This document shows, piece by piece, positions 10,750 to 40,268 of a stretch of 64,000 bases of DNA. Each line of letters starts with the position of its first letter. Position 1 is the first letter of the stretch. Both the position numbers and the translations under genes were made by a program. Under the pieces are notes generated by a model. It was given only the letters and a program-made list of their open reading frames with translations, did not search any database and was not told the DNA's origin. Source of the stretch: a virus; the IMG/VR virus record IMGVR_UViG_3300048918_000116, positions 7,245 through 71,244 of that record; one strand, 5' to 3'.

Positions 10750-10779
10750 AGTATAGGGTAATCGTTTTGGGAAATGCAA
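10750..10779 (-). promoter_or_regulatory. sigma70-type promoter upstream of TerS
   Basis: Minus strand TTGCAT-18 bp-TATACT. Confidence 0.55.
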
Positions 10780-11303: not shown

Positions 11304-11779
11304 TCTAATTCCTCAAGTACAATTTTACTACCGTTAGATAATTCGAAGGTATGGACAATACAACCCTGTGTATATCTTACATCTTTTTGGTGGGCGGTTA
11401 TACAAACCTTCTGCGTGTAAAAGTTAAACCACTTCTCCTCTTTATACCGATCTTCTAGAGCTCTTATTGTTTGATACCGTATTCCCTTTTCATAATCTTG
11501 TTCGGACATGGTTTCACCTGTAAAGGTCTTCAGCAGAAAATCCATCATAAAACTCAATGCCAATGTTACCGTAGACAATCTTTCTTTTAAGCATGTCCGG
11601 ATTGTGCGGATAATCTTGCATGAGATCGCCATTCTTGTCCCGAACATAAACTATAGCTTCGCCCTTGTCTGTATCGGCGGTAAGACAATCCTCTAAAACA
11701 ACGCCGTTCTTATAGACGTTCTTAATGAGAACCCAAGCGTTAATGTAATACCCGCGATCTTTGTCGTCAATAGAAACTC

Positions 11780-17217: not shown

Positions 17218-17492
17218 TTGGAAGTGATCTGGTAATGTGGTGGTAGCGAATTGGTATAGGGTAATAGTACGTTAGAATGTTATGGATACGCAATAAGAAT
17301 ATTGTATCGGTAGTTGATAGGGAACATTGGGAATTTTCCTAGTTTTTTTTTTAGGATGGGAGATAGTGAAAGTATGGACGGGGTGTACTTTGATAGGTGA
17401 TATGGAAACGTTGGAGAGTATGGATAAAATAGGCCCACGTAGCCGCTTTTGTTGCCTTTTGGCATGATTTACTTACAGCATGATGCATACAG

Positions 17493-17534
17493 TTTGCGCT
17501 AGCGCAAAGCGTGTCAGCTAGGGTAGGCTATACT
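17493..17534 (+). promoter_or_regulatory. early promoter with upstream palindrome (copy 1)
   Basis: TTTGCGCTAGCGCAAA (17493-17508) and TATACT at 17529. Confidence 0.6.
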
Positions 17535-17602
17535 ACAGTTATGGGTAGTGCACCACTACCCACCTAACCCCAGGCAGGGGTACATTACTAAGGAGCAACA
17601 CC

Positions 17603-18097
17603 ATGTCCAAGCAACAACAAGCCACACAGCAACATGCTGTTGAGCAATCAGTTAACACATCCGTGCAGCAACTGTTTTCCGCTGGGCCAGATTCCCTGCG
17701 CGCACGTCGCCTTGCCGCAATACAAGTTACTTTGCAGCAGCGTCGTATCGCTGCAAAGCAAGCTAAGTTTGTTGCTGTATCGCAAGCACATGCCGCAGAG
17801 CAAGAGCGTCTTGCTAAGCAGCAAGCATACCAGTTAGCAGTAGAGCAGCTTGCCGCGCAGTATGGTATTCCCCTGCATCAACACGTAGCACCACGCGCTA
17901 ACAGTGCAACAACAGTTCCAAGCAACAACCAAATTCTTATCGATGGGCAATACTTTACACCATGCAAAGCAGTGCACGCTCTTGCTGCTATGCATGGGAA
18001 CCGTAAGGACACATTAGCAGCATGCAAGTTGCATGGTATCAACCCTGCTACTGCTGCCACACAATGGGGCGTGTACAAGAAGGAACATGGCCTGTAA
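17603..18097 (+). CDS. early protein with C-terminal HTH-like domain (paralogue family A)
   Basis: RBS AAGGAG; C-terminal ACKLHGINPATAATQWGVYKK resembles ORFs at 25793, 42036, 42877. Confidence 0.75.
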   Translation: MSKQQQATQQHAVEQSVNTSVQQLFSAGPDSLRARRLAAIQVTLQQRRIAAKQAKFVAVSQAHAAEQERLAKQQAYQLAVEQLAAQYGIPLHQHVAPRANSATTVPSNNQILIDGQYFTPCKAVHALAAMHGNRKDTLAACKLHGINPATAATQWGVYKKEHGL

Positions 18098-18342
18098 TCA
18101 ATAGGTAAGCAACCCCGCAAGGGTTGCTCTAAGGTCATTCACCTAGTGGCCTTAGAGCAGCACTTAGCACTGTGCCACACAACGCTGACACATTAGTTAA
18201 CTCTTTAACAACTAGAACCTAAAGACTGACGAACAGTCGCCGACCGTACAGGTCGCCACATAGCGTGTGACAGACGCCGTGTGATTGCCCTTTAGAAATA
18301 GAGTGCAATCACTGAAATTAATTCATGAAAGGAAGGTGCATC

Positions 18343-20285
18343 ATGACATCAGCAAGTGGAATCCATCATCTACCACAATTCTACGCACAAGACGACGGAT
18401 TCGGCAACCTAATTATGGGATCAAGTGCCAGCTGGATTTGGATCTTTGACTGGCAATTTGATGGTGACATCACATATGTCAATTCATTAACATATTTAAC
18501 AGGACACATTTAATCATGACCGCCGAACAAATCATGAGACTTCATATCAATACTCTCGAAATAAATGAAAGACGAATATTAGAACAAATTGCTTGGGCTA
18601 ATGAAAATATCTATTATGAATTAGCTGAAGCGTTAGATTTAGCTTTAGTTCATATATCACAGAAAAAGACCTTCGCTCGTCATTTGTTGGAAGAAATGAA
18701 AATTAACAAGGAGTTATCTAATCATGAATAGCAAAATTATTCAACCTTACGCCGGATATTACGAAGGAGGCTTAGAATATCCAAAAGCTATAAGATATCA
18801 TGACGGCGATAATTTTGTGATGCACACAGACGGACGCATCTTCAATTGTCATCCAAGAATTAACGGAATTTGGCCTATTCGTTTCCAAATTAAGGAATAC
18901 GACGGAAATTTCCAATTTGTTAAAGAACTTTTCTCTTCATGAGTAGATTATCAGCAGGGAGTTTGCGCAAACGCAAAGTGTATCCTTGCAGTAATGTTAT
19001 AATATAATTCTAGCATTGCGGAAAATTCTGCTAACTCATTCAAAGGAGTGGGTTAGCGGGGCAATTCCGCCCATTGGAGAAATAATCATGACATTTACTA
19101 CCCGCCACGAAGCTGTCGCCTACCTTGTGGAGACAGGCAAACCTCTAGCCATGGCAAAAGTTGCAATCAATGAGTGTTTCAATCAAATTCCGGTGCCCAA
19201 AGATGAAGATAATGATCTATTACGTATTGTTACAGGTCCTGAAACTACTCAGGTGGCTACTGCTTCGACTGAAATCGTTAATCAGGCTTATGATGAAGTG
19301 ATCGGTTGCGACTTTGATTGCGGCGATGAAGGAATTTCCATCATGGGTGAGCTCAAATACGACCTCAAAGGTGATTTAATACCTCCACCTGCTGAACAAA
19401 ATGCACCAAGCACAGAAGTAACTCAATAACCACACTCACGGGCGGTCGAGATGGCCGCTCTTTAGGAGAACAATTATGGAAGCATTTTGCATTGCTTATA
19501 CTTATCGTGTTGGAAGTAGAACTAAACGTACTCGCGTCATTGTAACAGCAGAAAATTACGAAGAAGCAAAAGAAATTCTTCGTAAGAGTGAACGCTTCAC
19601 GACTATCAACATTGAAGAACCTGCTACCATTATTCCAAGTGGCGAAATTTGGTTCTTAGACGAAACCATTTTATGAGGAGAACTAAAATGAAAACAGAAA
19701 TGAAACTGGCACTGATGTACATCTTAGGCTCAGCTTTAATCGTCGGAGCCTGCGTTGCATCAGTAGCTATTGAAATTTACAAGGAAGAACTTGTGCACAT
19801 CATTCTTCTTGTGCGTAAGTAATTTATTCATGAATGGAGTTTATCATGAATTTACCAACTGTAGACGAATTAATCAAAATGTTTCAAAAGATTAATTCCG
19901 ATTGTCGTGCAACTGATGGCGAAGAGTTCGTTACTCTAAGCGATTGGGAATTTTACAGCGACCAAATCTTTGCAATTTATGAGGATAGTAAAATTACTCA
20001 TGAAGAGGCAGAAAAATTAGCAAAAGAAATGGCCGAAAAAGTGACAAGAGAAAATATCTCAAGTTTTTATTCATGAATAGAAAGGTAAGGCATATGACCA
20101 CACTCATTGCGGTTCGCCTTGAGGAAATTAGAGGCGGGCTCCAGACGGACAATAGGATGCTTTTGTTCAGGAAAAGAGGTGCGATTGGACATGCTACTCA
20201 CTACATTCTGGTCATGAAATGGCAGAAATTAAAGTTTGATCAGAAGCGAGAGATTCGCAAGGAATTTGAGCAAGTAGTAGCGTAA
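18343..20285 (+). other. small early hypothetical genes (18343-18513, 18516-18731, 18724-18942, 19088-19429, 19476-19676, 19846-20076, 20073-20285)
   Basis: Co-oriented ORFs with Shine-Dalgarno sites; 19088 ORF is a paralogue of 23324 ORF (TTRxxxxxYLVxxGKP). Confidence 0.6.
18962..19003 (+). promoter_or_regulatory. early promoter with upstream palindrome (copy 2)
   Basis: TTTGCGCAAACGCAAA (18962-18977) and TATAAT at 18998. Confidence 0.6.
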
Positions 20286-20289
20286 AGAA

Positions 20290-20800
20290 GCCTGCCGGTG
20301 CTAGTTCAGGCCGGTAGGATGTTAATGTAAAACTTGTTAAATGATACAGATTTTACATTAGCAAATTAGTGTACTCCTATTTTTTAGGGTATTCTGCCAC
20401 ATATAATGCGTTAGCCTATCATATATGTAGAATCTTGGGTACTACTAATGGGGTATATACTAGGGAATATAAGGGTTTTATATATATTATTAGTATTATT
20501 AGTAGTTTAGGAGTAGCACGCCTCAAAACATATTAGTCTTACTATAAGTTCTAGTACGATGATAGATTTTAATAGTTCTTTTGCACATTATATAGGCAAC
20601 ACAGGCTTACTATATAAGGCTTACTACGCCGTCCCCGGGCTAGCACACTTTACTAATAATAATTTTGCGTGCACCGTGGCTTAACTATATAGGCAGCCTA
20701 TGTACTAATTCCGCAAAGCAACAGACACAATAAATGCACTTGCAATCTTATTAGTCTTACTGGTACACTTTAAAAGCTGTCCAGACCAACAAACCTTTTC
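20290..20800. other. AT-rich non-coding region, candidate replication origin
   Basis: About 500 bp without an ORF; repeats TATTAGTCTTACT (20531, 20749), TATATAGGC and GGCTTACTA. Confidence 0.4.
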
Positions 20801-20805
20801 ATATC

Positions 20806-21558
20806 ATGCTTAACATGTCTACTAAACTAAATGCAGAAACACCGCTGCTAGTTCCATTAGAGCAGCTAGTAAATCATTACGATGTTGACTCAGCATACGT
20901 CGTCAAGCAATACCCGCACCATCGCGGAATTAACACTCAAGTTCGTTATTGGGTAGAAACCCGCAAACCATATGGCCAACGCTTGGTATATCAAACGCTT
21001 GACCCTTACACATGCAAATGGCTCAAAGAAAAGCCTGGAGCGTATGTAGCATTAGCAATCATGCGAGTAAACTGCGATTACGATCATCCACAGTGTGGTC
21101 ATGTAATTCCGCTCGTTTACCCGACATTTCTTAATCTTAACAACCAACAGTTCTGTGAGCTTGCATTAGCGTACTCTTACACAGAATATCAGAAAAATGT
21201 TATTATGAAAGAACTTATTGAACGTTTCGGCCCTGTCCAACCGCCACCATGGCGCAACGACCCGCCCATTAACCTAGCAGATGCAAACCGAGCAGAAAAT
21301 CCGCTCCCTTATGAATTGCGTGTGGAACGTTTAACCACACCTGAAGGAATTATCTGTGAAACATTTGCAGCAGCGCATACTCGCGTTCGTAAGGAAAGAC
21401 GCGCTCTTAAACTTCAACAACACCCTGAACTAGCCGACGAGCCCAAGCGTACACGAGCACCAACAAAGTTCAAAAAAGTTGATCCACATAGCGTTGACAA
21501 CCTTAACGATCACGAACTTGCGCTGTTTAACGAACTCATGCAGCCTCCATCCGATTAA
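20806..21558 (+). CDS. hypothetical protein
   Basis: 250-aa ORF after TTGCAA-18-TACACT; AYVVKQYP...VRYWVET...GQRLVYQTLDP. Confidence 0.7.
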   Translation: MLNMSTKLNAETPLLVPLEQLVNHYDVDSAYVVKQYPHHRGINTQVRYWVETRKPYGQRLVYQTLDPYTCKWLKEKPGAYVALAIMRVNCDYDHPQCGHVIPLVYPTFLNLNNQQFCELALAYSYTEYQKNVIMKELIERFGPVQPPPWRNDPPINLADANRAENPLPYELRVERLTTPEGIICETFAAAHTRVRKERRALKLQQHPELADEPKRTRAPTKFKKVDPHSVDNLNDHELALFNELMQPPSD

Positions 21559-21777
21559 CCCGTAACACATATCAAGGACAACAATGTTCTCTAAGCTCTC
21601 CAACTGGTACGCCTCTTGGCCCAAATTATTACGCTTCACGATTCAAACAATTCTATTTCCCTTCTTTGCAATATGTGCCGTTCCATTCTTTATCGTAATA
21701 GGCATACTGCAAGGTATCCTTGAAATGTACGATGATTTTAAGTAGTCCAACCACTCCCAACCTCAAAGGAGCTCCAA

Positions 21778-22137
21778 ATGGCCACACCTACACCTCTACA
21801 ACAAACATTCATTAACGCTCTGCGTACATCTGTAATTGGAATAGGTACAATAGTTCCAAGACCAATCAAACAAATCAAAGGCCAACTAAGAGACAGTTGT
21901 GGCGGGTTCTGCTTCCTTGGTCTTGCTAAGCATCTTGCTAAGGACGACGATTATTGTTCCGACGCACTACGCCGTCTTAACATCTTTGAGCTTGACGAAT
22001 TTGGTAGTTATATGTTCAACCCAATGGACATCCCTGAATGCGCTCACACTTGGGTTAGCCTTAACGACGCAGATAACGGGCTTACCTTTCCACAGCTTGC
22101 TGACTGTGTAGAATGGCTCATCCGTTCTCAGCAGTAA
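21778..22137 (+). CDS. hypothetical protein, paralogue family B
   Basis: FINALRT...FCFLG...LND...LTFPQLAD. Confidence 0.7.
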   Translation: MATPTPLQQTFINALRTSVIGIGTIVPRPIKQIKGQLRDSCGGFCFLGLAKHLAKDDDYCSDALRRLNIFELDEFGSYMFNPMDIPECAHTWVSLNDADNGLTFPQLADCVEWLIRSQQ

Positions 22138-22235
22138 TTACCAGAGCAGTAATTGCCCGCTGTATGCCTACACAAACCAGCGTGTGGGCATACGGAGCGT
22201 AATTCACGCTCATAACCTTAACAGGAGAAATAACT

Positions 22236-22658
22236 ATGACTATCTCAACCAAACGCACTCTCAATCGTGGTAACTGCCTCGAGTTAGCCAAGTTCCTTGA
22301 AACCCCTGACCTCAAACAAACGACAGGGATGTTACATATTAATGATTGCTTCTGTCTCCTTGGAGCAGCATGTGAAGTCTATCGTCAAAATACAAAGCGT
22401 GGTCGTTGGGAAGTACAACAGTCTTCATCCGGCAACCAAATGTTCCAGTTCATTACAGCGAACGATCACAACATTAGTACATTGCCGCAAGAAGTTATCA
22501 ACTGGTATGGTTTCGATAGCGACTTGCCTTACAGTCCTGTATCTGATAGATCTTCGCCTTTCTTTGGTACAATATCTTATTCAGGTCTAAACGACGGCGG
22601 TTTTACCTTTCCACAAATTGCCAACATCTTACGCTATCACACAACTATCCCTGACTAA
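22236..22658 (+). CDS. hypothetical protein, paralogue family B
   Basis: KQTTGML...FCLLGAAC...LNDGGFTFPQIAN. Confidence 0.7.
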   Translation: MTISTKRTLNRGNCLELAKFLETPDLKQTTGMLHINDCFCLLGAACEVYRQNTKRGRWEVQQSSSGNQMFQFITANDHNISTLPQEVINWYGFDSDLPYSPVSDRSSPFFGTISYSGLNDGGFTFPQIANILRYHTTIPD

Positions 22659-22733
22659 CACCTAATATCCAACCGTACGTAATAACAACAATCACCAATC
22701 AGCATCCGTAATGCCTAGTTCTGCTAGTATCCT

Positions 22734-23210
22734 ATGCTGTCAACAAGTGTTGAAAACAACCTAACAGTAAAGGCAATTATGTCAAAAAATCCTGAGTTTG
22801 CTAAAGATTTAAGCTCCTTAATAAATCTTGTGTCTGTACATCCTCAAGAGTATCGTTACCCTGACCCGTCTAAGTACGCATATACGCGGCCAGCTCTTCA
22901 ACGCTTTATCAACAATCTGCGTACCAACAAATACATTCAGATTACTGGATGGTATTTCCACGATGACCCAATAACATATCCTAACCATTGCACTTTTGAT
23001 GGTGCCGTAGTTCTAGAAATATTGCACAAACCGGAAGAAGAATTTTACGCACAACAGCGAGCGTTCTTTGACCTTGGTTTTCTGCGACGCGGCGTTGATA
23101 CACCAGACGGTTATTATTCGTTCTGGGACCTGAACGATAAACACGGCATTACTTTCCCTCAATTTGCCGACCTTATTCAGTGGGCGGCCCGTAGCGGTCA
23201 AACTATTTAA
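22734..23210 (+). CDS. hypothetical protein, paralogue family B (start uncertain)
   Basis: FINNLRTNKYIQITG...LNDKHGITFPQFAD. Confidence 0.65.
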   Translation: MLSTSVENNLTVKAIMSKNPEFAKDLSSLINLVSVHPQEYRYPDPSKYAYTRPALQRFINNLRTNKYIQITGWYFHDDPITYPNHCTFDGAVVLEILHKPEEEFYAQQRAFFDLGFLRRGVDTPDGYYSFWDLNDKHGITFPQFADLIQWAARSGQTI

Positions 23211-23247
23211 TCATTCCATCAACGCGCTAACGTTTATCTTTGTCGAG

Positions 23248-23290
23248 TTTGCGTTAGCGCAAACCCTATTGCACCACAACACGGTACAAT
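23248..23290 (+). promoter_or_regulatory. early promoter with upstream palindrome (copy 3)
   Basis: TTTGCGTTAGCGCAAA (23248-23263) and TACAAT at 23285. Confidence 0.6.
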
Positions 23291-23323
23291 GTAAATGCAC
23301 ACCCCATAACAGAAGGAGCAATC

Positions 23324-23626
23324 ATGCTAACTACTCGCACTCAAGTTATTAACTACCTTGTAACCCAAGGTAAGCCCGAAAACTTCGCTCGCGCAATGAC
23401 TAATGAATTTCTGAACTGGGATAGCAACCCAAATGATCCAGACTTCGTTCCCGACCTAATTTGGTTTACTGAGCCATCGCATAAAGATTCCGATGTAGTA
23501 AGCATTACCGAAAAAGAAGCACTCAAGTTTTATGACGATTTTATGGGCTACGGAGTAGAACTCACTCCTGACGGTATCACATTCGATTATGACTTAACCT
23601 TCGACACTCAAGGCAATTACCTTTAA
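23324..23626 (+). CDS. hypothetical protein (paralogue of 19088 ORF)
   Basis: RBS AAGGAG; MLTTRTQVINYLVTQGKP. Confidence 0.7.
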   Translation: MLTTRTQVINYLVTQGKPENFARAMTNEFLNWDSNPNDPDFVPDLIWFTEPSHKDSDVVSITEKEALKFYDDFMGYGVELTPDGITFDYDLTFDTQGNYL

Positions 23627-23675
23627 CCACACTGACGAGTTCATAGGAACGAAACCTCTGCGAAGAGGCCTGTGG
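23627..23675 (+). ncRNA. type I hammerhead ribozyme, variant with GCC at the cleavage triplet
   Basis: CCACA-CTGACGA-GTTC(ATAG)GAAC-GAAA-CCTCT(GCGA)AGAGG-CC-TGTGG: all three stems and the core are present, but U16.1 is C. Confidence 0.75.
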
Positions 23676-23702
23676 TCAACAACAATTTGAAAGGAGCTAA
23701 CT

Positions 23703-25600
23703 ATGCACAATATTCCACTCAACACGCACATTGAATCGTTCGACCGTGAATCTGCGCTCGTGGATGAAGTGTGCCCTCTTACGGATACGCCACTCAACCT
23801 AGAAGAAGGCAATTATGTTTTCTTCTACGACTATCCGATGAACGAAGATGTTTGTTTCAATCATCGCCTAACGCCAGCAATGAGCGTTATTGATGTGCTT
23901 CTGTTAGCAACAGAAGATTACAAAGAAATCTACAAGGACTATGACAATACTTGGGGGGGGGGCCACAGTCTGAATAACCTTTTCTTTGAAACGGTTCGCA
24001 TTGCACCGCAGACCAAGGAAGTTTGCTTTAATATTGGTTCGTAACTATGAAAGTTCTAACCGCACCCACAGCACTCGCACTCATTGCAGCAATGCACGAG
24101 ATTGTCAAAGGTGAGTCCGAGTTCTGCACTTGGGAAATAGTTCATAACCCAACTGGTATGTCAATCCTCATCTTCAACAGTGCAAGTGAAGTAATTGGTG
24201 AAGTTAAACAGTCGTATTAACTGGAGTCAATAATGGCAATTCACTTATTGTACGTCTACATTGAAGAAGGTGACGGAATGTCTGAAAATGCGCTGGAAGA
24301 AGCAGTGCATGACGGTAACTACGTTGATCTTACTCTGTCAAACAATATGGCGCTAGTAGTTAGTGCCAAGGAAATGTTGGATGATTATATTGCATTGAAA
24401 GGAATTTAAATGGCCTTCTTTGAACCTACACAAGAACGTATTGATTATCTTATCGACATGTATAGTGAAGGTGGTTTTGAGTCTGCTATGATTACTGAGA
24501 AATCAGATCATCATTACTACGAAACCGAATTGCAAGATATCGGTCCATTGTATATTATGGATGATTTTGGCAATGCACAAATTGTGGCCTTTGAAATGTT
24601 CGGACAGGAAATGTTCATCTTTCCTCCACTCAAAGTTTTAACTTAACAGGACAACTAATGGACCAACATCTTATTCGTTACCTCGCGCTCATAGCGGCAG
24701 CGAACGCCCGTGTGGCAGGTATGCAAGCGGAGAACAAGCTCAACGAGTTCTACCAAGTGCGTCCAGCTTATGGTGAAGACCACTTTAATGCGATCGCCAA
24801 CGAGCTTGAAGCTTTATCTACTGAAATAGTCAACTACAGAGGTTAATATGACTTTTGATGAATTATACAATGAATCGCTAACGCGTCTTGATGCTTACAT
24901 AGCGACTCAGAAAACCCAAGACCAAATCCTTGACGCTAAGCATGTAAAGCGCCATGTTGAAATCAACAAAAGGTTTTACGAGCACCGTCACGCTAAAGGC
25001 GAGCTCCTGTATATTTGCAGCTCTTGCGGTCAGCTTGAAGCGGCTACTTACACGGAGCCAACCCGAACCCAAATGCTCGATCGCAATGTTTGCTTTCATT
25101 GCAATTACTGGGCAGAAATTGTTACCGAACATCCGGTAAATCGCGTCATTGTTGACGGTAAAGTGTACAGCGACGCGGGTAATGATGACGGGCATTCTAT
25201 CAGCAGGTTCCGCGGTCACGGTGGGCATGTATGGCACATTCAAGACGGTAACGGACATCGCTGGGAGACTAACAACCTCTGGTTCAATGGTGTCGTTCCA
25301 GAAGAGTATCGTGTCAAATTGCCTGACAACGCCAAGTTTCTTTATCCTAACAAATAGGAGGATATTATGACTGAACGGGCAACAGCATTCTCAACACCTG
25401 ACGAAATTTCTTACTTTCGTTTCGCATCAATTAAGCAGCGTTTGAAGCTTGAATCGGTCGGCCTTAAGTTTCGTGGCGGCAGTACACGAAGTCTGGTCGC
25501 CAAAGAGTTTGGTCTTAAGCCGCGAGCACCGTTCGCAGAATACATCGCCTACTGTGAATCGCAAATGGCTATTCTGATTGCCAAAAAGAAGCAATCTTGA
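23703..25600 (+). other. small early hypothetical genes (23703-24044, 24410-24646, 24658-24846, 24848-25357, 25367-25600 and two shorter ORFs)
   Basis: Co-oriented ORFs with RBS; 24848 ORF has CxxC...CxxC motifs. Confidence 0.6.
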
Positions 25601-25695
25601 ATAGTGAACCAATCCAAAAATGTTACAATTAATCTTTAGCGTTTAGCTGCATTTTAGCGCACAATGTAATTGTACCGCAGCAGCAAGCAATATCA

Positions 25696-25760
25696 GCCAC
25701 ACTGATGACGACCTTAATGGTTGAAACCCGCAATCTTCAATCTTCACGCGGGTCTGTGGC
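25696..25760 (+). ncRNA. type I hammerhead ribozyme
   Basis: GCCACA-CTGATGA-c-GACC(TTAAT)GGTT-GAAA-CCCGC(16 nt)GCGGG-TC-TGTGGC; predicted cleavage after GUC at 25754. Confidence 0.85.
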
Positions 25761-25792
25761 AGGTGCCACGTTTAACTCTACAGGAGTGTATC

Positions 25793-26950
25793 ATGACTGC
25801 ACAGAAATCCAGCAGCAAGTCTGCAACCAAAAGCCAGCCAAAGCCGGCCAATAAGTCTGCGGCGAAGCCCGTTCAGGTGGCACCGCAAACTACGGTCGCG
25901 TCGGTACAAGAGCCGTCAGCTGCTCAAACCGCTGAAAGCTCGGCCGCTCCGAACATTGTGCAAGCATTACTTGCCAATCCGGATATGTCTACCAAGCTGA
26001 CCAAGCTGGCCTACGAAACAGGTGTACTGCCTGACCGTCGTCAGGACGAACGCCGCCACGATGGTGACAATGCAATGCAGTTCGCGGTGACGCAACTCAC
26101 CACTCCGGCAGCAAGCGCAGCAGCTAGCACCGAAACCGCACTTGCACCGTTTACAGCACCCCCAAGCGAACCGCAAGCTAGCGCACCGCTTACAGCACCG
26201 ACAGCAGCACCCGCAAGCGTACCAACAGCAGCAACAGCGGAAATGAATCCGACGCAACTGGCACAGTTTCAGGCTGCAATGCTTGCACTTGGTCAGCAGT
26301 TCGGAATGCCGGCGGAAGTTATTCAGAACCTCAGCAATCCTTCAACACTGTTGGCTACTACGCCGCGTTCAGCGAAGGATACACGGAACAGTATTACTCG
26401 TCCCGGCGCTGATACGAAGACCGGCAAGGTGTGGGCAATAGGCGATGCAATTAGTATGCAGAAAGGCGGTACGCCAGAAACTACGCCAGCAAGCATTGCT
26501 GAACTGAAGGCGCACCCTGACCTTCGCCAGTTTAATGACCACACTATCCGGACGCAATATGCTCGCTGGAGGCAATATTACGGCGTAAGCGGTCGCGTTC
26601 AGTCGGAAATGGTTTCTGCGCCGGCTACCAAGCCAACGCAAAAGGCGTTCCCGAAAATGACTGATGACGACTTCGCACGTTACATGGATTTGCGTAGCCG
26701 TGGTCAGTTGGATGAGGGTTACAAAGAATGGCTTGACTTTGAAGAATATCGTCGGAATCCCGCAGCAGGGAATGCAGCAGCCGGCCAAGCTCAAGCACCA
26801 AAGCAGTTCGCACCAACCGAAGCACCGATTGGGCCAATGGCTGATGAAGTTTACAACAGGCTTCTTCTGTTGAAGAACAACAACACGCTGCCAATCAACT
26901 TCCAAGCAGCATTTGACGCTGAAACCGCTCGCCGGGCCTCAGCAGCGTAA
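25793..26950 (+). CDS. Ala/Pro-rich protein with HTH-like domain (paralogue family A)
   Basis: Start re-placed at ATG 25793 after AGGAG; ITRPGADTKTGKVWAIGD...TIRTQYARWR. Confidence 0.8.
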   Translation: MTAQKSSSKSATKSQPKPANKSAAKPVQVAPQTTVASVQEPSAAQTAESSAAPNIVQALLANPDMSTKLTKLAYETGVLPDRRQDERRHDGDNAMQFAVTQLTTPAASAAASTETALAPFTAPPSEPQASAPLTAPTAAPASVPTAATAEMNPTQLAQFQAAMLALGQQFGMPAEVIQNLSNPSTLLATTPRSAKDTRNSITRPGADTKTGKVWAIGDAISMQKGGTPETTPASIAELKAHPDLRQFNDHTIRTQYARWRQYYGVSGRVQSEMVSAPATKPTQKAFPKMTDDDFARYMDLRSRGQLDEGYKEWLDFEEYRRNPAAGNAAAGQAQAPKQFAPTEAPIGPMADEVYNRLLLLKNNNTLPINFQAAFDAETARRASAA

Positions 26951-26966
26951 TGCCTGGCGCATTGAA

Positions 26967-26995
26967 GCCGGAGAGGGCAACTTCTCCGGTTATTT
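26967..26995 (+). terminator. intrinsic terminator
   Basis: GCCGGAGAG-GGCAA-CTTCTCCGGT followed by TATTT. Confidence 0.55.
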
Positions 26996-27070
26996 GCGTT
27001 CGCTCTTGTAAAGCTTCAACGATAGGCCCTTTGCCTATCGTGGGCGCTTTGCCCAGAACTGGAGGTTATT

Positions 27071-28009
27071 ATGAAACCCAATCTTAAGCTCAAGATTTTG
27101 CCATTGCTAGTGTTATCAGCATGCGGCGGCGGAGCTCCCGACCATGTACTCACCAGCACAGTAGGCGACACACCTGTTCAGTGCGAAACATTCCTCACAC
27201 CGAACTCATCGCCCAACACAGCTACGACCAATTGCATTAGTCCGACGCTGCCGTTTCAGCCCACAGTGCAGCCAGCTTTGCCTCCCGGCGTAACCGCGCC
27301 AATTCCTCCGCAAGTGCCAACTACACCTGCGAAGGTCGTCAACGCACCGACGACAGCACCCACAGCGTCGCCAACCGCACCAACAATGGCCACTCCGGTT
27401 CTGGTAGTCAGCGCACCTAGCGTTAGCTATTCGCAACGGGCAACTTCCGACCGTACCGACGAGCAAAGCAAGCAGCAAATTCACGTCATATACCTGCTCG
27501 CTAAAGGCGCCGTTGATCGCAACCTTGACAGAGTTGGTAGCATTCAGAATTACACCGACGCTATGAATAGCTGGCTTACTGATCGTACTAGCCAGAAATT
27601 CAACTTTGACCGTTATCAAAGTTACGTTGATGTAACTACGATAGCTTTGTTGAATGAAGATAGCTGGTACGATAGCCAGCCTAACCAGTTCAAACGCGAT
27701 GCTATCGAGAACGAGCTACTGACTCGCGGCTTCGTAAATAGCGCCAACAAGCGTTATCTTGTCTTCTACGAAGGCTACAACCCTGACGGTAACTGCGGCG
27801 ATTCAAGAAACGTAACTAGCATCCTTTATCTGCTCGCTGCGGATGGCCGTTGCGCAACCGAGCTTGTCGCCATACATGAACTCCTTCATAACTTCGGTGC
27901 AGTTCATAGCAGCGTCCCGAACGATATCATGTATAGCGGCCCGCTTAACCGTTCCACCAGCTACACAATCACCGCGTCCGAACTCAAAGGCGCTTACTTG
28001 GAGCAATAA
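27071..28009 (+). CDS. lipoprotein with metzincin-type zinc metalloprotease domain
   Basis: Lipobox LSAC, Pro/Thr linker, HELLHNFGAVH and Met-turn DIMY. Confidence 0.7.
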   Translation: MKPNLKLKILPLLVLSACGGGAPDHVLTSTVGDTPVQCETFLTPNSSPNTATTNCISPTLPFQPTVQPALPPGVTAPIPPQVPTTPAKVVNAPTTAPTASPTAPTMATPVLVVSAPSVSYSQRATSDRTDEQSKQQIHVIYLLAKGAVDRNLDRVGSIQNYTDAMNSWLTDRTSQKFNFDRYQSYVDVTTIALLNEDSWYDSQPNQFKRDAIENELLTRGFVNSANKRYLVFYEGYNPDGNCGDSRNVTSILYLLAADGRCATELVAIHELLHNFGAVHSSVPNDIMYSGPLNRSTSYTITASELKGAYLEQ

Positions 28010-28011
28010 TT

Positions 28012-30024
28012 ATGAAAACCGAATTTAGCGATCACAAACTCTTCGTATTGGAAGCCCTTCATCGCGGGCTACAAATCTTTACATACCCTCCTTCACACGA
28101 AGGTATGCACGAAGACGATATGCTTGAGCCAACAGTTGTTGGCATTCGTCAGATTAACCCAAAACCAGACTATCCCGGCGACAAGTATATTGATATTGCG
28201 TTCGGGATGGGTTACTTGATATGCGTTCGCGAAAACGAATGGATATTTGAAGGTGTGCTATTTGATACCGATGCTGAGTTTGCAGATTGGTATGAAGAGC
28301 AAATGTTGAAAGATTTAGATGAGCAGATTCAATTAATAAATAAGTCAATTGGCCCCGACGACAGCAACAAGGGTTAAAATTAACGTGCAACAACTTTTCA
28401 ACCACAACCGAAAGGAATAATATGGCCAGGCAAAAAGAATATACACGGAAAGTTCGTGCCGTGTATTACGAAAATATGAAGGCTACAAAAGTAGTCAAAG
28501 AGACTCGAGGTACTCGTCCTGAAGGTATGGTTCAAGCTGCTTTTCGTCATCTGCGTTACAATCACTATGCCGCAATGGTTGTTGAGGTATTTGACGATGA
28601 TGGTAAGCTTTATGACATTCTCAAACGCCATATTAACGGCAAAGTTGAGAGCATGTTACAACAATCTAAAATAAAGGATTGATATCATGACAACCCAAAA
28701 CAAGCGTCATGCTAATTACGTTAAGATGGCCGAGTTTCGCGCGGCTGCTGTGGCGTACATTAACACCATTGATAAGTTCACGCCTGGCAGCGAAATCATT
28801 GGTTCGCTGTCACACGTACTTTCTAGCATGGGAGTAAACGAGAAACAGGCCAATGTTCAGCTAAGAGGCTTAGCAGAAGCAGGTCTTATTGAAATCAACA
28901 AATCAGGTAAGAACTTCTCCTACAAAGGCAATAATGGCGACATCGCACTGGCTGCAAAGTCCGGTACAATGTGGGCTCGGGAAGCAAAGGCTGCTTTTTA
29001 CCACACTCAGCCTGAAGCGACCGTAATGGCGGTTCAACAAAGCTCAGTTAAGCCAGGCAAAGCCAGTGCGCCAACGTTCACAGTTGATCTGGTAAAGAGC
29101 TCTGGGCGCGTGAGGGTTGCGCTTGGAGGTGTGGTCATTGAAATCGGTGTCGTTGATAACTAGGAGAAATTATGAAACACAAACCAGAAGAGTACCGCCA
29201 CATCCGTGCGTGGGGACGTCATCTTCATTCCTTCAACTATTACATTGAAGACCAACAATGGAGAGCATCCGAAGAACACGCTCCGTTGAACGCAATCTTC
29301 AAAGGCACTGACGGAACTTGGCATACTGTAGATGGTATTGCCAGCGAAGAGCTTAAGACTAAGATTGAGCACGATGCCACTCGGGATGTATTTTAGCGTT
29401 TGCACCGTACCGCTAGCGCAAAACACCGCGCTTGCGCATGCGGCAAGGGGGGTAGGCGCGGTTTTTAGCTTGCACCCCTATGCTGCATAAGCGCAGCATT
29501 AAAAATAGCGTGTAGCGCGTTTAAACAAGCTGTCCGTTTTAACTCAACAAGGAGTGATTATGGCAAGGCGCGGTGCTCTCAATGTAAAAGACTTTGAGTT
29601 TTTAAAAGCTGAGAAGGAAAAAGGACCGAAGACCGTATGGGTGGCCCGATTTCCTCTCTGGTTAAGGATGAAACCCATTGAATGTGAAGATCCTAAACTA
29701 TTTATCAAATTGGTAGCAAAGATTCAGAAGATGTACCCAGATATGAAAATTACTATCCACAAGATGAAACTTTCAGATTCAGACAACCTTACAATAAGGG
29801 AGGAATAAATGAGTGAACTCTGTACGAAAGAGAGACCAATGCCTGCGAACCAAGACCAAATAGGTCAGAATTGGGTTCACGATAATTGCAAGATGTTAAG
29901 CTTTATAAACTATGTTGCTCACTTCAAGTGTATGAACTGCGGTTATGAATTTCGGTCATCTTATAATACATCTAAAAAGAGAGGAATAAATGCTAACGGT
30001 GCAAGAGGTAAAACCAAAGCTTGA
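28012..30024 (+). other. small hypothetical genes (28012-28377, 28422-28682, 28687-29163 winged-helix-like, 29172-29396, 29554-29808, 29809-30024)
   Basis: Co-oriented ORFs with RBS. Confidence 0.6.
29386..29533. repeat. GA/TC-free island of a dispersed motif family
   Basis: 148 nt with no GA or TC; shares TTTAAACGCGCTACA, TAGCTTGCACC, GTTTGCACCG and AGCGCAAAAC with 57064-57207. Confidence 0.7.
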
Positions 30025-30487
30025 AAATCTCAAAAATTGGCTGATTGCCCGCGGTGCTGAGGTTTTTGATCCAATTGGCGATTTTGAGTTATTTCGGTTT
30101 AAGACGCAAAAAGGCTGGTCATCTTTTTATTTTAAGAAGACCGGCGTTATTACATTCTTCGGTGAGGCTGAAACTGTATGGAACGCTTTTACCAAGAATA
30201 CTAACTGGAGAGCATGCCCACGAGTAAAGCGCCCTAAAGCGCATAACCGGCATTTTGATGCAATTCGCAAGCGTGACGGCGATCTATGTTTTTATTGCCG
30301 ACTTGAAGTTGAAAATATAGACGCTTCTGAAGAACATTTGGTGGCATTAGCTCACGGAGGTCCTAATCATATAAGCAACAAGCTTCTGGCGCACAAGAAA
30401 TGCAATAACGCTGTTGGCCATCTTAGTGCCGCCGAGAAGATTAAAATTCATGTAGCCGCTATTACAGCCATCCGAAATAAAAAATAA
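29990..30487 (+). CDS. HNH endonuclease
   Basis: RDGDLCFYC...EHLVALAHGGPNHISN...AHKKCN. Confidence 0.85.
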   Translation: MLTVQEVKPKLENLKNWLIARGAEVFDPIGDFELFRFKTQKGWSSFYFKKTGVITFFGEAETVWNAFTKNTNWRACPRVKRPKAHNRHFDAIRKRDGDLCFYCRLEVENIDASEEHLVALAHGGPNHISNKLLAHKKCNNAVGHLSAAEKIKIHVAAITAIRNKK

Positions 30488-31366: not shown

Positions 31367-33769
31367 ATGATCTTTACATACGATCGCATTCCGGAAGAAA
31401 TGCGTTGGGATCGCGCCTGGTGTTTAGCCGGTCCTGACGATACAGGCAAGTATAAAGCTCCGCATAGTTTTGGCACAAGGGGGATCTTTAAAATCCCGCC
31501 TACCCAAACAGACCAATTGCGCGACCTAGAGGGTGTTATCGACGCTGCGGAGCTGTATAAGCCTTGCGGTATTGGTTTCATGCTGTCCAAAGACGACCCG
31601 TACACCTGCATTGATTTGGACATTAAAAATGAACGAAACGAACCAGACAAATCCAAATGGACTACTAACGAGCAGCTCGAGAGGTTTTGGAAAATCATAC
31701 GCGCTTTTGATAGCTATACTGAACGGTCCGTCTCAGGCTGTGGTTTCCATATTTGGATCAGAGGGAAAATTGGAAAGGGATGTAAGCGTGATGGAGTTGA
31801 GGTCTATAGTCAAGAACGCTTCATCGTATGCACAGGCGATGTCGTTGTTGACAAAGATATTGAAGACCGACAGGGGCTTTTGGATGTATTGGTCGCCGAA
31901 ATTGGAAACGCCAAACAAGGCAAAATTGAGCTTACAGATTTACTCGAATCCGATGACGATACGATCATCTTGGATCGAGCAAGAAATGCTGAAAACGCAG
32001 ATAAATTCAACAAGCTATACAGTGGGGATTGGGGAGGTTATCCTTCTCAGTCCGAAGCCGACTTGGCGCTTATGTCCATTTTCACGTTTTATACCAAGTC
32101 CAATGCACAGTGCCGACGTCTATTCCGAACTTCGAATCTGGGGAGGCGCTCGAAAGCTACCAAAAATGATCGTTACCTTAACGACACATTACGGCTTATC
32201 CGCGGGCGCGAAGCGCGGGAAGAAGAAGTAGAGTTCGCGGGCGCTGCTCAAGCTGCTGCCTTGCTAGCTAACCTCAACACACGCGAGGTTGTAGATCAGG
32301 AGACCGACGAAACAACGACCGAAGAAATACCTGCTCATCTTATTATGGATGACGCAGACTTACCTGAAGAAGAACTTGACGAAAATGCTAAGGGCCTTCC
32401 ATGGCCGCCCGGTTTAGTTGGCGAGATTTCGCGTTACATCTTTAATGGTGCGCCACGTCCAGTAAAAGAAGTTGCTATAGTGTCAGCACTTGGACTTATG
32501 GCTGGCGTATGCGGTAAAGCATTTAACATTCCGCAGTCTGGTTTGAATGTGTATATTGTTCTAGTAGCTAAGTCTGCTATTGGTAAAGAAGCGATGCACA
32601 GTGGTATCGCGAACCTTCTTGCGTACATTGCAGAATCTGTTCCTGCTGCTATGAGCTTTGTTGACTTTACCGACTATGCTTCAGGACCAGCGTTGACGAA
32701 AGCTGTAGCCGGCAATCCTAGCTTTGTAAACGTTTCCGGTGAATGGGGTCGTAAGCTACGTCGTCTAGGTATGGAAGACGGACGCGATGGGCCTATGCAA
32801 CAACTCCGCACAGTGATGACAAACCTGTACCAAAAGTCAGGGCCTAAGTCTATTGTCGGAGGTATTGGTTATTCAGATAAAGAAAAGAATGTAGCGTCAG
32901 TCTCTGGTGTAGCATACAGTATGATTGGCGAAACTACTCCGAGTACGTTTTACGACGCGCTTACAGAGTCAATGATGGAAGACGGCTTTCTAAGTCGGTT
33001 TACTGTTATTGAATACAACGGGGAGCGCCCGGCTAACAACAGCCGCGGAATTATTGCTCCTCACCAAGCGTTGAAGGATGCCTTGTGCAGTCTTTTCACA
33101 CAGGCCGCAGCACTCAACCAACGCTTTGAAACCCAAGAAGTCACGCGCAGTTACGAGGCAACACAAATACTTGACGCCTTTGACAAAGAATGCGATAGTA
33201 AGATCAATGGTAGCGAGGACGAAGGTTTCCGGCAAATGTGGAATCGCGCGCACCTTAAAGTGTACCGCATTGCTGCATTGCTCGCAGTAGCAGACGACCA
33301 TGTGAATCCGGTTATCAGCAAACTGCACACAGAGTGGGCGCTGGACGTCATACGGCGCGACATTGGTGTTATGAGTCGTCGTATTAGTTCTGGTGATGTT
33401 GGTGTAGGTGACTCTTCGCGCGAGAAAAAGATCCTTACCATTATTCATAAGTTCCTCAAAGAAGGTGCGCCACCTAGCTACGGCGTACCGGAAGAAATGC
33501 GCAAGAATGCAGTTGTTCCACGGAAGTACCTACAGATCTGCACACAGCGGGCGTCTAATTTTACGTCGCACCGCGGAGGTCAAAATATGGCACTTGACTT
33601 AACAATCAAGTCCCTTATTGATAGCGGATACTTGCAAGAGTATGCCAAAGACAAAGCTGCAAAAGACTTTGACTTCTTGGGTAAATGCTATCGTGTGATC
33701 ACTCTGCCTTTGAATACAGCCGAAGGTAGGGAGCTTCAAGCGACACGTAAAAGTTTAGGATCTAAGTAA
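31367..33769 (+). CDS. DNA primase-polymerase with C-terminal DUF3987-like/helicase-like region
   Basis: GIGF...CIDLD...YTERSVSGCGFHIW...EVYS prim-pol motifs; YPSQSEADLAL. Confidence 0.85.
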   Translation: MIFTYDRIPEEMRWDRAWCLAGPDDTGKYKAPHSFGTRGIFKIPPTQTDQLRDLEGVIDAAELYKPCGIGFMLSKDDPYTCIDLDIKNERNEPDKSKWTTNEQLERFWKIIRAFDSYTERSVSGCGFHIWIRGKIGKGCKRDGVEVYSQERFIVCTGDVVVDKDIEDRQGLLDVLVAEIGNAKQGKIELTDLLESDDDTIILDRARNAENADKFNKLYSGDWGGYPSQSEADLALMSIFTFYTKSNAQCRRLFRTSNLGRRSKATKNDRYLNDTLRLIRGREAREEEVEFAGAAQAAALLANLNTREVVDQETDETTTEEIPAHLIMDDADLPEEELDENAKGLPWPPGLVGEISRYIFNGAPRPVKEVAIVSALGLMAGVCGKAFNIPQSGLNVYIVLVAKSAIGKEAMHSGIANLLAYIAESVPAAMSFVDFTDYASGPALTKAVAGNPSFVNVSGEWGRKLRRLGMEDGRDGPMQQLRTVMTNLYQKSGPKSIVGGIGYSDKEKNVASVSGVAYSMIGETTPSTFYDALTESMMEDGFLSRFTVIEYNGERPANNSRGIIAPHQALKDALCSLFTQAAALNQRFETQEVTRSYEATQILDAFDKECDSKINGSEDEGFRQMWNRAHLKVYRIAALLAVADDHVNPVISKLHTEWALDVIRRDIGVMSRRISSGDVGVGDSSREKKILTIIHKFLKEGAPPSYGVPEEMRKNAVVPRKYLQICTQRASNFTSHRGGQNMALDLTIKSLIDSGYLQEYAKDKAAKDFDFLGKCYRVITLPLNTAEGRELQATRKSLGSK

Positions 33770-38369: not shown

Positions 38370-39185
38370 ATGACAGCATTTTCTTTTAATGCAAAAACAG
38401 TTGAACCGGATCAGGGCCGTATTGGTGCATTGCCCGCTGGATGGTATCCTGTGTCTGCAGACGAAACCGAACTGAAGCCTACAGGTAACGGCGGCGGCGA
38501 ATACATCAATGTTCGTTTCACCATTCTTGACGGCCCTTACAAGAACAGCAAGTTCTGGCATCGCTTCAATACAAAGAACCTCAGCGACAAAGCGGTCGAA
38601 ATTGGCTACAAACAACTCAGCGCGCTGATGCATGCAATTAACGTGCTTGAAATCAAAGTGCTAGCGCAACTGCAAAACGTCCCACTGTTCGTCAAGGTGA
38701 AGTTGGTTCCTGCTGAATACGAACCTGACGGCGTTACTGTCAAGTACGAAGCTAAAAACGAAATCACTGCATTCCGTTCAATCACCGACGAAGCAGCTCG
38801 TGCAGGTTTCCAAGGTGTCGGCGCCAAGCCAGCCGCAGCAAAAGCTCCACCTCCACCAACTGCGGCAGTAGCAGCGCCGGCAGCAGGTTGGAAACCTCCT
38901 GTAGCGGAACAACCATGGACTCCCCCAAACACGGCAGCGGCAGTCGCAGCAGTAGTTCAGGCTCCGGTTGCCGCTGCCGTGACGGCTCCGGTTACTTCTA
39001 CAGTGACCCAGACCTCGGCCCCTGCTGCTGCACCAGTAGTTCAACCAAGTTGGGCAACTGCGCCAGCTACGGTTGCCGTGGCCCCGACGACGACGGCTGT
39101 CCCATCACAGGAACAGCCTGCTGCCCAGGCTGAAGCTCCGGCTAGCACAGAAGTTCCACCTTGGATGGTTCCGCCAGCAGAGTAA
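38370..39185 (+). CDS. single-stranded DNA-binding protein (DUF669-like)
   Basis: ALPAGWY...FTILDGPY...AVEIG...NEI; Pro/Ala tail ending PPW. Confidence 0.8.
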   Translation: MTAFSFNAKTVEPDQGRIGALPAGWYPVSADETELKPTGNGGGEYINVRFTILDGPYKNSKFWHRFNTKNLSDKAVEIGYKQLSALMHAINVLEIKVLAQLQNVPLFVKVKLVPAEYEPDGVTVKYEAKNEITAFRSITDEAARAGFQGVGAKPAAAKAPPPPTAAVAAPAAGWKPPVAEQPWTPPNTAAAVAAVVQAPVAAAVTAPVTSTVTQTSAPAAAPVVQPSWATAPATVAVAPTTTAVPSQEQPAAQAEAPASTEVPPWMVPPAE

Positions 39186-39244
39186 TCCGACTACGGTGTG
39201 CGAGCGAATGTCAAGAGGCCAGTAGCTCGTAGTTAGTCCGTAGA

Positions 39245-39268
39245 GGCGCCCTTTTCGGAGGGCGTTTT
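39245..39268 (+). terminator. intrinsic terminator
   Basis: GGCGCCCTT-TTCG-GAGGGCGTT-TT. Confidence 0.7.
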
Positions 39269-39359
39269 AAAGTGACGAATGCAACAAAAGCTGAAAGCAA
39301 TTGCAAATACGCGGATACTCGGGATTAGCGCCGAGCGTCACTTTAAAACTGGAGGAATA

Positions 39360-40268
39360 ATGGCTATAATTGTCGCAAAAAAGACTAAAGCAGCAATTGA
39401 TGCAATGTTGGAAGCGGATCAAGGCGCTCGTTACCGCACGACGTTGAAAAATGTTATCCCACACATGGGCGACGCATATCGCGGAGCTGACGATGGGTTT
39501 CGGTCACACCTTGGAGCATCACAGATTGGTAAGGTGTGCGATCGTGCGCTATGGTACGGTTTTAGATGGGCAGTTAAGCCCAAGTTTATTGGTCGTATGT
39601 TACGACTGTTTAACCGTGGACACCTAGAGGAAGCACGTTTCATTGCGCTACTGTTATCCATTGATGTAAAGGTATGGCAGCAAGACGCTAACGGGAACCA
39701 ATTCCGTATTAGCGAATTTGGAGGCCACTTTGGAGGTTCGGGCGATGGTGTGGGCATGGGAATTCCGGACATTGAACTTAATAGTCCGTGCGTACTTGAA
39801 TTCAAAACCCACAACGATAAGTCTTTTAAAAAACTCATTACTGATGGTGTGAAAGCTGTAAAGCTAGAGCATTGGGTACAGATGCAGTCTTACATGCGAA
39901 AGATGGGCATTCCTGTCGCTTTGTATGGAGCGGCTAATAAGAACGATGACGAGTTGTATTTCGAGATTGTACATCTTGATACTGTTGCGGCAGACATTTA
40001 CATCCAACGTGCCCACACTATAATCTTCACGCGGACTCCACCAGATAAAATCCATGACTCAACAGGTTGGTATGAATGCAAATACTGCGACCAAAACACG
40101 GTCTGTCATCTTGGTGCGGAACCAGCGCGTAACTGTCGAACTTGTCACTTTGTCTCCTTTGAGGCTGACGGTACAGTTGCATGCCGCAATCCCTTTGGAC
40201 CAAAAGCCAAGCAAACCCTAACAAAAGAAGATCAACTTTCGGCCTGTACTGAATACGAGAAATTCTGA
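39360..40268 (+). CDS. Cas4-like/PD-(D/E)xK exonuclease
   Basis: RSHLGASQIG.VCDR...GSGDG...LEFKT...QMQSYM...CKYC; start after GGAGG. Confidence 0.85.
   Translation: MAIIVAKKTKAAIDAMLEADQGARYRTTLKNVIPHMGDAYRGADDGFRSHLGASQIGKVCDRALWYGFRWAVKPKFIGRMLRLFNRGHLEEARFIALLLSIDVKVWQQDANGNQFRISEFGGHFGGSGDGVGMGIPDIELNSPCVLEFKTHNDKSFKKLITDGVKAVKLEHWVQMQSYMRKMGIPVALYGAANKNDDELYFEIVHLDTVAADIYIQRAHTIIFTRTPPDKIHDSTGWYECKYCDQNTVCHLGAEPARNCRTCHFVSFEADGTVACRNPFGPKAKQTLTKEDQLSACTEYEKF

Follow-up and report, generated by a model that had tools for sequence, protein, structure and literature searches.

Two non-coding islands without GA or TC in a DpdA-encoding virus: possible avoidance of the phage's own modification target

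Introduction

Hypermodification of phage DNA tends to be treated as nothing more than a defence against restriction enzymes and CRISPR. Here we ask why a phage that encodes a modification system should also carry short stretches of DNA lacking the very word that this system is predicted to modify. The DNA in question is a 64,000-nucleotide (nt) stretch, hereafter called the window, which comprises bases 7245 to 71244 of a 71,244-bp viral contig (IMG/VR record IMGVR_UViG_3300048918_000116). It encodes a predicted DNA guanine transglycosylase, DpdA, and contains two stretches of almost 150 nt in which the dinucleotide GA is absent from both strands (that is, neither GA nor TC occurs when one strand is read). 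We refer to these stretches as island 1 and island 2 (Table 1). A sequence-only reading of the window had interpreted island 1 as a deliberately unmodified patch at which a protein must read unmodified DNA, such as a replication, recombination, packaging or ejection signal.

In the literature covered here, a target motif has been mapped for just two phage DpdAs, those of CAjan and Iggy, and each of these enzymes targets GA. CAjan is reported to carry dPreQ0 at GA and GGC, with all GAN trinucleotides modified, and deletion of dpdA abolishes the modification (PMC7544227). In Iggy, dPreQ0 is reported strictly at GA, with 97% of GA sites modified (PMC10484667). Motif-free regions are not mentioned in the covered passages on deazaguanine phages, which included some from the CAjan, Iggy and "four additional derivatives" papers.

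Results

Islands 1 and 2 are the longest runs without GA or TC in the window and in the whole contig; the third-longest run of the contig is 79 nt. The contig contains 8090 GA and TC dinucleotides in total, and a geometric model predicts 2.6e-4 gaps of at least 144 nt per genome. Genomes simulated under Markov models of order 1, 2 or 4 (300 per order) had maximum gaps of 99, 106 and 113 nt, respectively, and a gap of 144 nt was reached in 0 of 900 simulations. That reading had expected roughly 18 GA and TC in island 1; mononucleotide shuffles gave means of 18.4 (island 1) and 18.0 (island 2), and none of 20,000 shuffles per island had zero. Control pairs of similar abundance had longest runs of only 60 nt (AG/CT), 75 nt (AC/GT) and 68 nt (CA/TG). 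Since base composition within the islands is balanced and the nine remaining dinucleotide classes are all present at normal rates (observed/expected ratio [O/E], 0.5 to 2.4), the islands are not low-complexity DNA. Their GC contents are 52% (island 1) and 47% (island 2). We concluded that chance is excluded as the cause of the islands.

The other particulars given earlier for island 1 also stood up: its coordinates are exact, and it is mostly intergenic, with 137 of its 148 nt taking up most of the 163 nt between the stop codon of the open reading frame (ORF) at 29172-29396 and the ATG at 29560. The four motifs of 10 to 15 nt that it was said to share with island 2 were found to be one 15-mer, one 11-mer and two 10-mers. 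The heptamer TTGCACC occurs twice in island 1 and three times in island 2, in mixed orientation, out of 20 copies contig-wide. GGC is still present, as had been noted: GGC and GCC number 2 + 0 in island 1 and 1 + 1 in island 2, about half of the ~3.8 expected per island.

Overall, GA/TC is mildly under-represented (O/E, 0.92 in coding DNA and 0.83 in spacers), and most spacers of at least 60 nt are normal. The poorest spacers are 57069-57201 (no GA/TC), 29427-29553 (3 versus 15.9 expected), 17466-17602 (4 versus 17.1) and 10720-10916 (11 versus 24.8), and these four lie at four plausible operon boundaries. The last of them, within the structural block, also contains six consecutive G3-G4 tracts at 10845-10880 that resemble a G-quadruplex. 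A mild overall deficit is what would be left by neutral decay, in which the modified G of GA is mutagenic and unconstrained DNA loses GA, as methylated CpG is lost in vertebrates. We regard this explanation as extremely improbable: most spacers are normal, depletion is all-or-none at a few sites, and island 1 seems more conserved than the adjoining ORF, not less. A 160-nt contig piece from another metagenome differed at 2 of 159 positions over island 1, and a second piece differed at 13 of 189 positions over the adjoining ORF (P = 0.014, with one low-depth piece each), which suggests greater conservation of the island.

The description of this virus as a deazaguanine-modifying phage is supported by its gene content, with support from genes only. 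The gene set for preQ0 synthesis is complete (FolE, QueD, QueE and QueC) and is accompanied by DpdA (Table 1). The Pfam TGT profile (PF01702) gave no match in the phage's own genome; DpdA was recovered with PHROGs and by tblastn, and its identity is 65% with the CAjan enzyme, 58% with the Iggy enzyme and 59% with the 9g enzyme. By this similarity, the window DpdA is predicted to target GA as well. DpdA is the only agent known in this family to read the dinucleotide GA in duplex DNA, and for this reason we consider the purge to be probably tied to it. GA and TC are both gone from island 1, around which only the plus strand is coding, and this suggests a constraint on duplex DNA rather than on RNA.

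We then compared genomes with and without DpdA. By primase, the closest cultured relatives are PaMx25-like phages (57% identity), followed by Iggy-like phages (46%). In IMG/VR, we collected 69 loci around homologous primases and searched 50 of their records for DpdA, which was present in 32, including 22 of the 23 that were at least 90% complete. The DpdA-positive set (n = 26) comprised 16 of these 32 records (whole or nearly so, three as 60,000 nt) and ten others: the contig itself, Iggy, CAjan, VPv62, VPv64, HD01, 9g, vB_VhaS-tm, Vid5 and PaMx25. The DpdA-negative set (n = 23) comprised G025, PaMx42, VCLv11 and 20 of 21 complete Septimatrevirus-like IMG/VR records (G060 was omitted; one was used as 40,000 nt). 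The Septimatrevirus-like records have primase, polymerase, clamp, helicase, exonuclease, SSB and Sak4 in common, and DpdA matches were found in 0 of 24. In this set of 49 genomes, complete or almost so, significance was set at the run length with a genome-wide expectation of 0.01, and a run was called non-coding if no open reading frame can span it.

When runs of every kind were counted, 15 of the 26 positive genomes and 9 of the 23 negative ones had a significant GA/TC-free run, and many of these runs are coding Ala/Pro/Gln-rich linkers (SSB tails, primase linker). With runs that an open frame can span set aside, 11 significant runs were left, in 7 of the 26 DpdA-positive genomes, and none of the 23 DpdA-negative genomes had one (Fisher P = 0.011). 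The comparison of dpdA-positive with dpdA-negative relatives that had been proposed earlier thus comes out in the expected direction, as a weak pass, since the two sets are different clades. In 44 of the 49 genomes, there were no frame-free significant runs for AG/CT, AC/GT, CA/TG, AA/TT or TA; the five further genomes, in which AG/CT, AC/GT and CA/TG were tested, yielded a single 96-nt CA/TG-free run, in vB_VhaS-tm. Runs free of CG, GC, CC/GG or AT were found in both DpdA groups, within AT- or GC-skewed DNA (44 genomes). A similar picture was obtained from primase-flanking DNA. In the DpdA clade (906 kb; 103 de-duplicated loci), there were nine frame-free GA/TC-free runs of at least 100 nt and none for three control pairs, and at 43 DpdA-negative loci (597 kb) there were no frame-free GA/TC-free runs of that length.

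CAjan had served as the precedent in the sequence-only reading. Its GA and GGC motifs are as reported (PMC7544227), but it has no comparable island: its longest GA/TC-free run is 81 nt, against a threshold of 117. Eight annotated terminators of DpdA-negative PaMx42, taken with 10 nt on each side, contain 32 GA/TC versus 41.9 expected. This is near expectation, so generic terminator composition does not explain the islands. AACGCGC-type words, considered as a link to spacers of vB_VhaS-tm and Vid5, were rejected: they are common in coding DNA of both DpdA groups. As a separate observation on coding runs, the primases of many relatives contain an Ala/Pro/Gln-rich linker between the primase and helicase parts, ~900 to 1070 nt from the start (e.g., L005 5881-6034), which gives rise to GA/TC-free runs of as much as 154 nt in coding sequence; the primase of the window itself has none.

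When 28600-30400 was compared as DNA with the phage collection, neither the near nor the distant search mode gave a match, and a search of viral contigs with the 82-aa ORF found one partial relative only. A metagenome scan with the primase yielded 80 loci, none closer than 64%. We checked island synteny by hand for G001, G003 and Iggy. In G001, whose primase is 64% identical, a 116-nt island lies directly upstream of a homologue of the 82-aa ORF (34% identity over 61 aa); RadC and primase homologues come next, in the order seen in the window. A stretch of 136 nt just downstream of the polymerase gene of G001 has only one GA/TC. G003 has an island of 149 nt, located between the DNA polymerase block and homologues of the minus-strand ORFs at 57202-57462 and 57521-57850, which flank island 2. 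In Iggy, the annotated divergent spacer gp89/gp90 contains an island of 152 nt (60074-60225) and the spacer gp07/gp08 a run of 108 nt (3179-3286); a third run, of 161 nt (27694-27854), lies at the convergent junction, where it overlaps an annotated 72-aa hypothetical ORF. Iggy escapes the open-frame rule because GC-rich DNA has few stop codons. The islands of these relatives cannot be aligned with those of the window; the shared features are where they lie and which dinucleotide is missing.

The purge also reaches coding sequence in certain relatives. Two coding regions of ~2 kb, G021 2350-4350 (L117 is G021 1-20000) and G020 38900-40950 (L087/L088), are nearly without GAA, GAC, GAT, TTC, GTC and ATC; the G021 region has 2 such trinucleotides, where the rate of its genome as a whole predicts ~168. 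The purged regions retain GAG/CTC or are enriched in it (46 versus 35), GGC/GCC is not depleted, and the encoded proteins have no Asp and have Glu solely as GAG. A "GRH" motif was tried as an explanation of this sparing of GAG and was rejected: the CAjan paper terms GRH an artefact, all GAN being modified (PMC7544227). In G001, a zone of ~0.8 kb with very few GA/TC (65957-66747, equal to L075 5957-6747, where L075 is G001 60001-69071) includes a 395-nt GA/TC-free run that encodes a homologue of the window's first early gene (17603-18097). A purge that reaches into genes and reshapes proteins argues for strong selection at the DNA level.

Some further features of these regions stand on their own. 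A spacer in the G001 zone carries four operator-like palindromes of the type TAGGCA-N-TGCCTA, and a similar palindrome is present in the window at 20697-20709. A 243-aa FtrA-like protein of the window (42036-42767) shares a short C-terminal motif with an annotated "transcriptional activator" of Iggy (32% over 57 aa; expect value [E], 7e-5), and the same motif is seen by eye in the first early protein (17603-18097) and in one protein encoded by the purged G021 region; the loci listed with it include L092 38541-39137. This motif may mark a family of small early DNA-binding proteins. DpdA-negative PaMx42 (L134), VCLv11 (L136), G052, G057 and other Septimatrevirus-like genomes show a genome-wide purge of GAG/CTC (Markov-1 O/E, 0.04 to 0.07), with 38 copies in the 43 kb of PaMx42; this purge is weaker in G064, G066 and G068 (0.23 to 0.32).

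A purge unrelated to DpdA could arise as a by-product of GC-rich hairpins with GCAA-type loops and regulator words, or from avoidance of another GA-reading agent, for example a nuclease of the host or of a phage. Hairpins and repeated words are abundant in the islands, and palindromic stem arms mirror an absence, which roughly halves the number of independent sites. Moreover, most DpdA-positive phages are without islands, and the sister clade's GAG/CTC purge (O/E, 0.04) shows that strong oligonucleotide selection occurs in the group. We nevertheless consider an origin independent of DpdA rather unlikely. The missing word is the exact mapped target of both characterised DpdA homologues, and the islands of relatives, being unrelated in sequence and mixed in fold score, share only the lack of GA/TC. 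Other non-palindromic pairs showed no effect in the 44 genomes, with one CA/TG-free run (vB_VhaS-tm) beyond them, and ordinary PaMx42 terminators have GA/TC at near the expected rate.

We next consider what the islands may do, beginning with their surroundings (Table 1). Upstream of island 1, from position 17603, lie some thirty small ORFs. Downstream are genes for an HNH endonuclease, RadC, primase-helicase, MazG, ligase, Sak4, SSB, a Cas4-type exonuclease and a helicase, and further downstream tRNAs, the Que genes, DpdA, RtcB, clamp and DNA polymerase. Given the gene content on each side, island 1 would mark the switch from early-looking to replication genes. At island 2, the plus-strand replication/Que operon converges with a minus-strand lysis/tail operon, in which the block beyond the island holds the endolysin and a tail-fibre-like protein. 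A terminator scan found two sites in island 2 (57155-57172 and 57110-57130; shuffle mean, 0.7). In island 1, the inverted repeat at 29418-29469 is terminator-like by eye only; its 24-nt loop is outside the rules of the scan.

Table 1. Coordinates of the features of the window that are discussed in the text
Feature	Coordinates	Strand	Remarks
Island 1	29386-29533		148 nt; both strands without GA or TC; non-coding; between small early ORF cluster and replication gene cluster
74-aa ORF	29172-29396	+	Runs 11 nt into island 1; Pfam and PHROGs gave no match
82-aa ORF	29560-29808	+	Directly 3' of island 1; no family match
Inverted repeat	29418-29469	+	14-nt arms, 86% complementary, 24 nt apart; 3' arm enters T5 (29462-29466)
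Perfect 7-bp stem with 6-nt loop, then TAAAAAT	29480-29499	+	Read from sequence, folded
15-mer	29511-29525	-	Other copy at 57076-57090 (+), inverted; sole two copies in contig
Primase-helicase	31367-33769	+	NrS-1 polymerase HBD domain and DUF3987; 1.8 kb downstream of island 1
Island 2	57064-57207		144 nt; both strands without GA or TC; takes up all of spacer 57069-57201, where ORFs converge
Left hairpin of island 2	57073-57104		Contains the 15-mer common to island 1
Perfect 12-nt inverted repeat	57121-57132 / 57183-57194		Encloses terminator-like hairpin 57155-57172; T-rich tail after
DNA polymerase	54495-56726	+	phrog_1252; last large gene ahead of island 2
86-aa ORF	57202-57462	-	Stop abuts island 2
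Endolysin gene	57855-58340	-	Upstream of 86-aa ORF, same block
QueE	44314-45048	+	tblastn: 51% identical to CAjan QueE, 47% to Iggy QueE
QueC	44999-45871	+	PF06508, E 3e-51
QueD (PTPS)	47258-47719	+	PF01242
FolE (GTP cyclohydrolase I)	47709-48653	+	PF01227
DpdA (DNA guanine transglycosylase)	49843-50769	+	phrog_887, E 8e-83
79-nt GA/TC-free run	17515-17593		Divergent spacer 17466-17602, upstream of first plus-strand early gene
Two adjacent GA/TC-free runs (58 + 59 nt)	10797-10917		Spacer 10720-10916, within minus-strand structural block

The plus-strand folds of both islands were better than those of shuffled sequences (z = -2.8 and -2.6), with 2 of 200 shuffles folding equally well. Such folds would fit a function as small structured RNAs, in which case the composition would reflect RNA structure. 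Rfam 15 gave no match up to E = 1 in island 1 and one sub-threshold match in island 2, to a snoRNA (E = 0.059; 22 bits versus a gathering score of 43), so that no Rfam family was assigned. An RNA-level constraint would not remove GA together with its complement, and the folds in relatives are mixed. We therefore judge small RNAs quite improbable.

The islands might alternatively be replication origins or loading sites for the primase-helicase, iteron-like and kept unmodified for reading or melting by an initiator. Motifs are common to both islands, which hold five of the 20 copies of TTGCACC; island 1 lies 1.8 kb upstream of the primase-helicase gene, and island 2 follows the polymerase gene. 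The arrangement is reminiscent of P4 ori/crr, where iterons at two separated places are bound by a primase-helicase: here, too, two separated non-coding sites share short repeats in a phage with a primase-helicase fusion. Unlike P4, the islands have few repeats in mixed orientation and no AT-rich unwinding region, as their GC contents show. A search for direct repeats found no families in island 1 and two weak two-copy families around island 2, and no iteron array. GA-poor spacers also number four in the window and as many as four in Iggy, too many for origins. On balance, an origin is unlikely.

A third possibility is that the islands are packaging or ejection signals (pac, cos or a terminal-repeat boundary) read by terminase on unmodified DNA. 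Iggy is reported to have terminal repeats of 1091 bp, and two GA-poor stretches are found in the last 560 nt of its record. Neither island of the window is near the large ORFs of the structural block, the presumed location of the terminase, and two or more sites per genome would be unexpected; we consider a packaging role very improbable. Origins or loading sites, packaging signals and small RNAs are thus possible functions of lower likelihood than control DNA.

Further observations concern the Que cluster. The ORF at 46015-46776 was considered as QueE and rejected, since QueE sits at 44314-45048. This 253-aa low-complexity ORF is rich in Gly, Ser, Asn and Thr (phrog_20531), lies inside the cluster and is directly followed by an HNH endonuclease gene (46779-47249). 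A tRNA cluster (43754-44257) is located just upstream of QueE; ARAGORN found three tRNAs (Leu-GAG, Pro-TGG and one of undetermined anticodon). Four tRNA-model matches in 43754-44254, the fourth spanning 125 nt (43829-43953), are the sole Rfam matches in the window.

Discussion

Our preferred reading, which we place close to, though short of, an even chance, is that both islands are regulatory DNA situated at operon boundaries, with terminators and probably a start region for middle genes, and that this DNA is kept free of the target of DpdA. GA would have been removed from both strands of this cis-acting DNA because it is the target of the phage's own enzyme. Where GA and TC are missing, the major groove would stay unmodified in injected, fully modified DNA as well as in freshly replicated DNA that is not yet modified. 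Proteins that read such a stretch, perhaps host RNA polymerase with associated factors or regulators of the phage, would then meet identical DNA at every stage. Judged by position and hairpins, island 1 would separate the small early genes (17603-29396) from the replication genes (29560 onward), probably with an early terminator and, after it, a middle-gene start, and island 2 would consist of back-to-back terminator hairpins where the replication/Que and lysis/tail operons converge. The repeated TTGCACC-type and TAGCGC-type words are speculative candidates for sites of phage regulators. Of the earlier proposal of a deliberately unmodified patch for protein reading, the link to the DpdA target is supported, by the GA/TC-specific purge, the 58 to 65% DpdA identity, the difference between DpdA-positive and -negative genomes, the islands at the same positions in relatives and the Iggy islands. 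Its suggested function is less well supported: the positions suit operon boundaries better than a replication, packaging or ejection signal.

Several points weigh against our reading. Some concern the enzyme. The GA target of the window DpdA is predicted from 58 to 65% identity to mapped enzymes, and this DpdA is nearer to that of CAjan, which also modifies GGC. The islands retain four GGC/GCC sites and would be free of modification only if the enzyme is GA-only. If the islands are purged control DNA, their GGC and its enrichment in the purged regions of relatives predict a GA-only enzyme like that of Iggy. Other points concern the comparison of genomes. The DpdA-positive and -negative sets are two different clades, and the association is confounded with phylogeny; G025, the only negative record recovered via the phage's own primase, is also without a polymerase match. 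No non-coding island was found in 19 of the 26 DpdA-positive genomes, including CAjan, 9g, Vid5, HD01, vB_VhaS-tm and PaMx25, so an island is not a general need of GA-modifying phages. Still others concern function. The operon boundaries were drawn from gene order only, the terminator scan found no site in island 1, and the fold z-scores of the relatives' islands are mixed (-2.3 to +1.8). Sigma-70-type promoters (-35 and -10 hexamers 16 to 18 nt apart) were found neither inside the two islands nor in 17466-17602 or 10720-10916; this is a weak test, because the consensus -35 hexamer itself contains GA and a GA-free promoter would score poorly. The only such match near island 1 (29338-29365) is within the upstream ORF.

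The proposed arrangement can be set beside known systems. The dPreQ0 systems of CAjan and Iggy have the same FolE, QueD, QueE, QueC and DpdA set next to clamp and polymerase genes; Iggy resembles the window further in its GA/TC-free stretches at spacers and at a convergent junction, whereas CAjan has no significant run. Intrinsic or bidirectional terminators at convergent operon ends are like island 2 in its GC-rich hairpins, T-rich tails and two scan sites; ordinary terminators are 20 to 40 nt long with normal GA/TC (PaMx42), unlike islands of 144 to 148 nt with mutual motifs. Avoidance of restriction sites and other motifs is known from phage genomes, as in the first-step-transfer DNA of T5, which is reported to have no EcoRI sites. 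There, too, selection strips a short enzyme target, in T5 from one functional segment only; in the present case the word avoided is a dinucleotide, which a protective enzyme of the phage itself would target rather than a nuclease of the host, and the regions avoiding it would be control regions of ~150 nt. In vertebrate CpG islands, regulatory DNA stays unmodified within an otherwise modified genome, with the target word retained and the enzyme escaped. The islands would be alike in being unmodified regulatory DNA, as inferred here from sequence, and differ in having lost the target word; there is no evolutionary relation. Local motif avoidance in control DNA, aimed at the phage's own modifying enzyme, is to that extent a reading not previously described in the portions of the literature searched.

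More generally, and with somewhat less confidence than for the islands themselves, we suggest that some hypermodifying phages rid cis-regulatory DNA of the word that their own DpdA targets, and in some relatives do so in entire early gene cassettes of ~2 kb, leaving "modification holes" of chemically ordinary DNA. If this is true, modification carries a cost for the reading of DNA, and genomes evolve around that cost. Genome sequence alone would then reveal both the motif of the enzyme (GA here and GAH in the G020/G021 lineage, not GGC) and the control regions. It would thereby allow the motifs of DpdAs to be predicted from sequence in uncultured phages, and promoters, terminators and operators to be found in phages that have no transcript data. 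Natural unmodified windows of this kind would also matter for restriction, for CRISPR targeting and for phage engineering.

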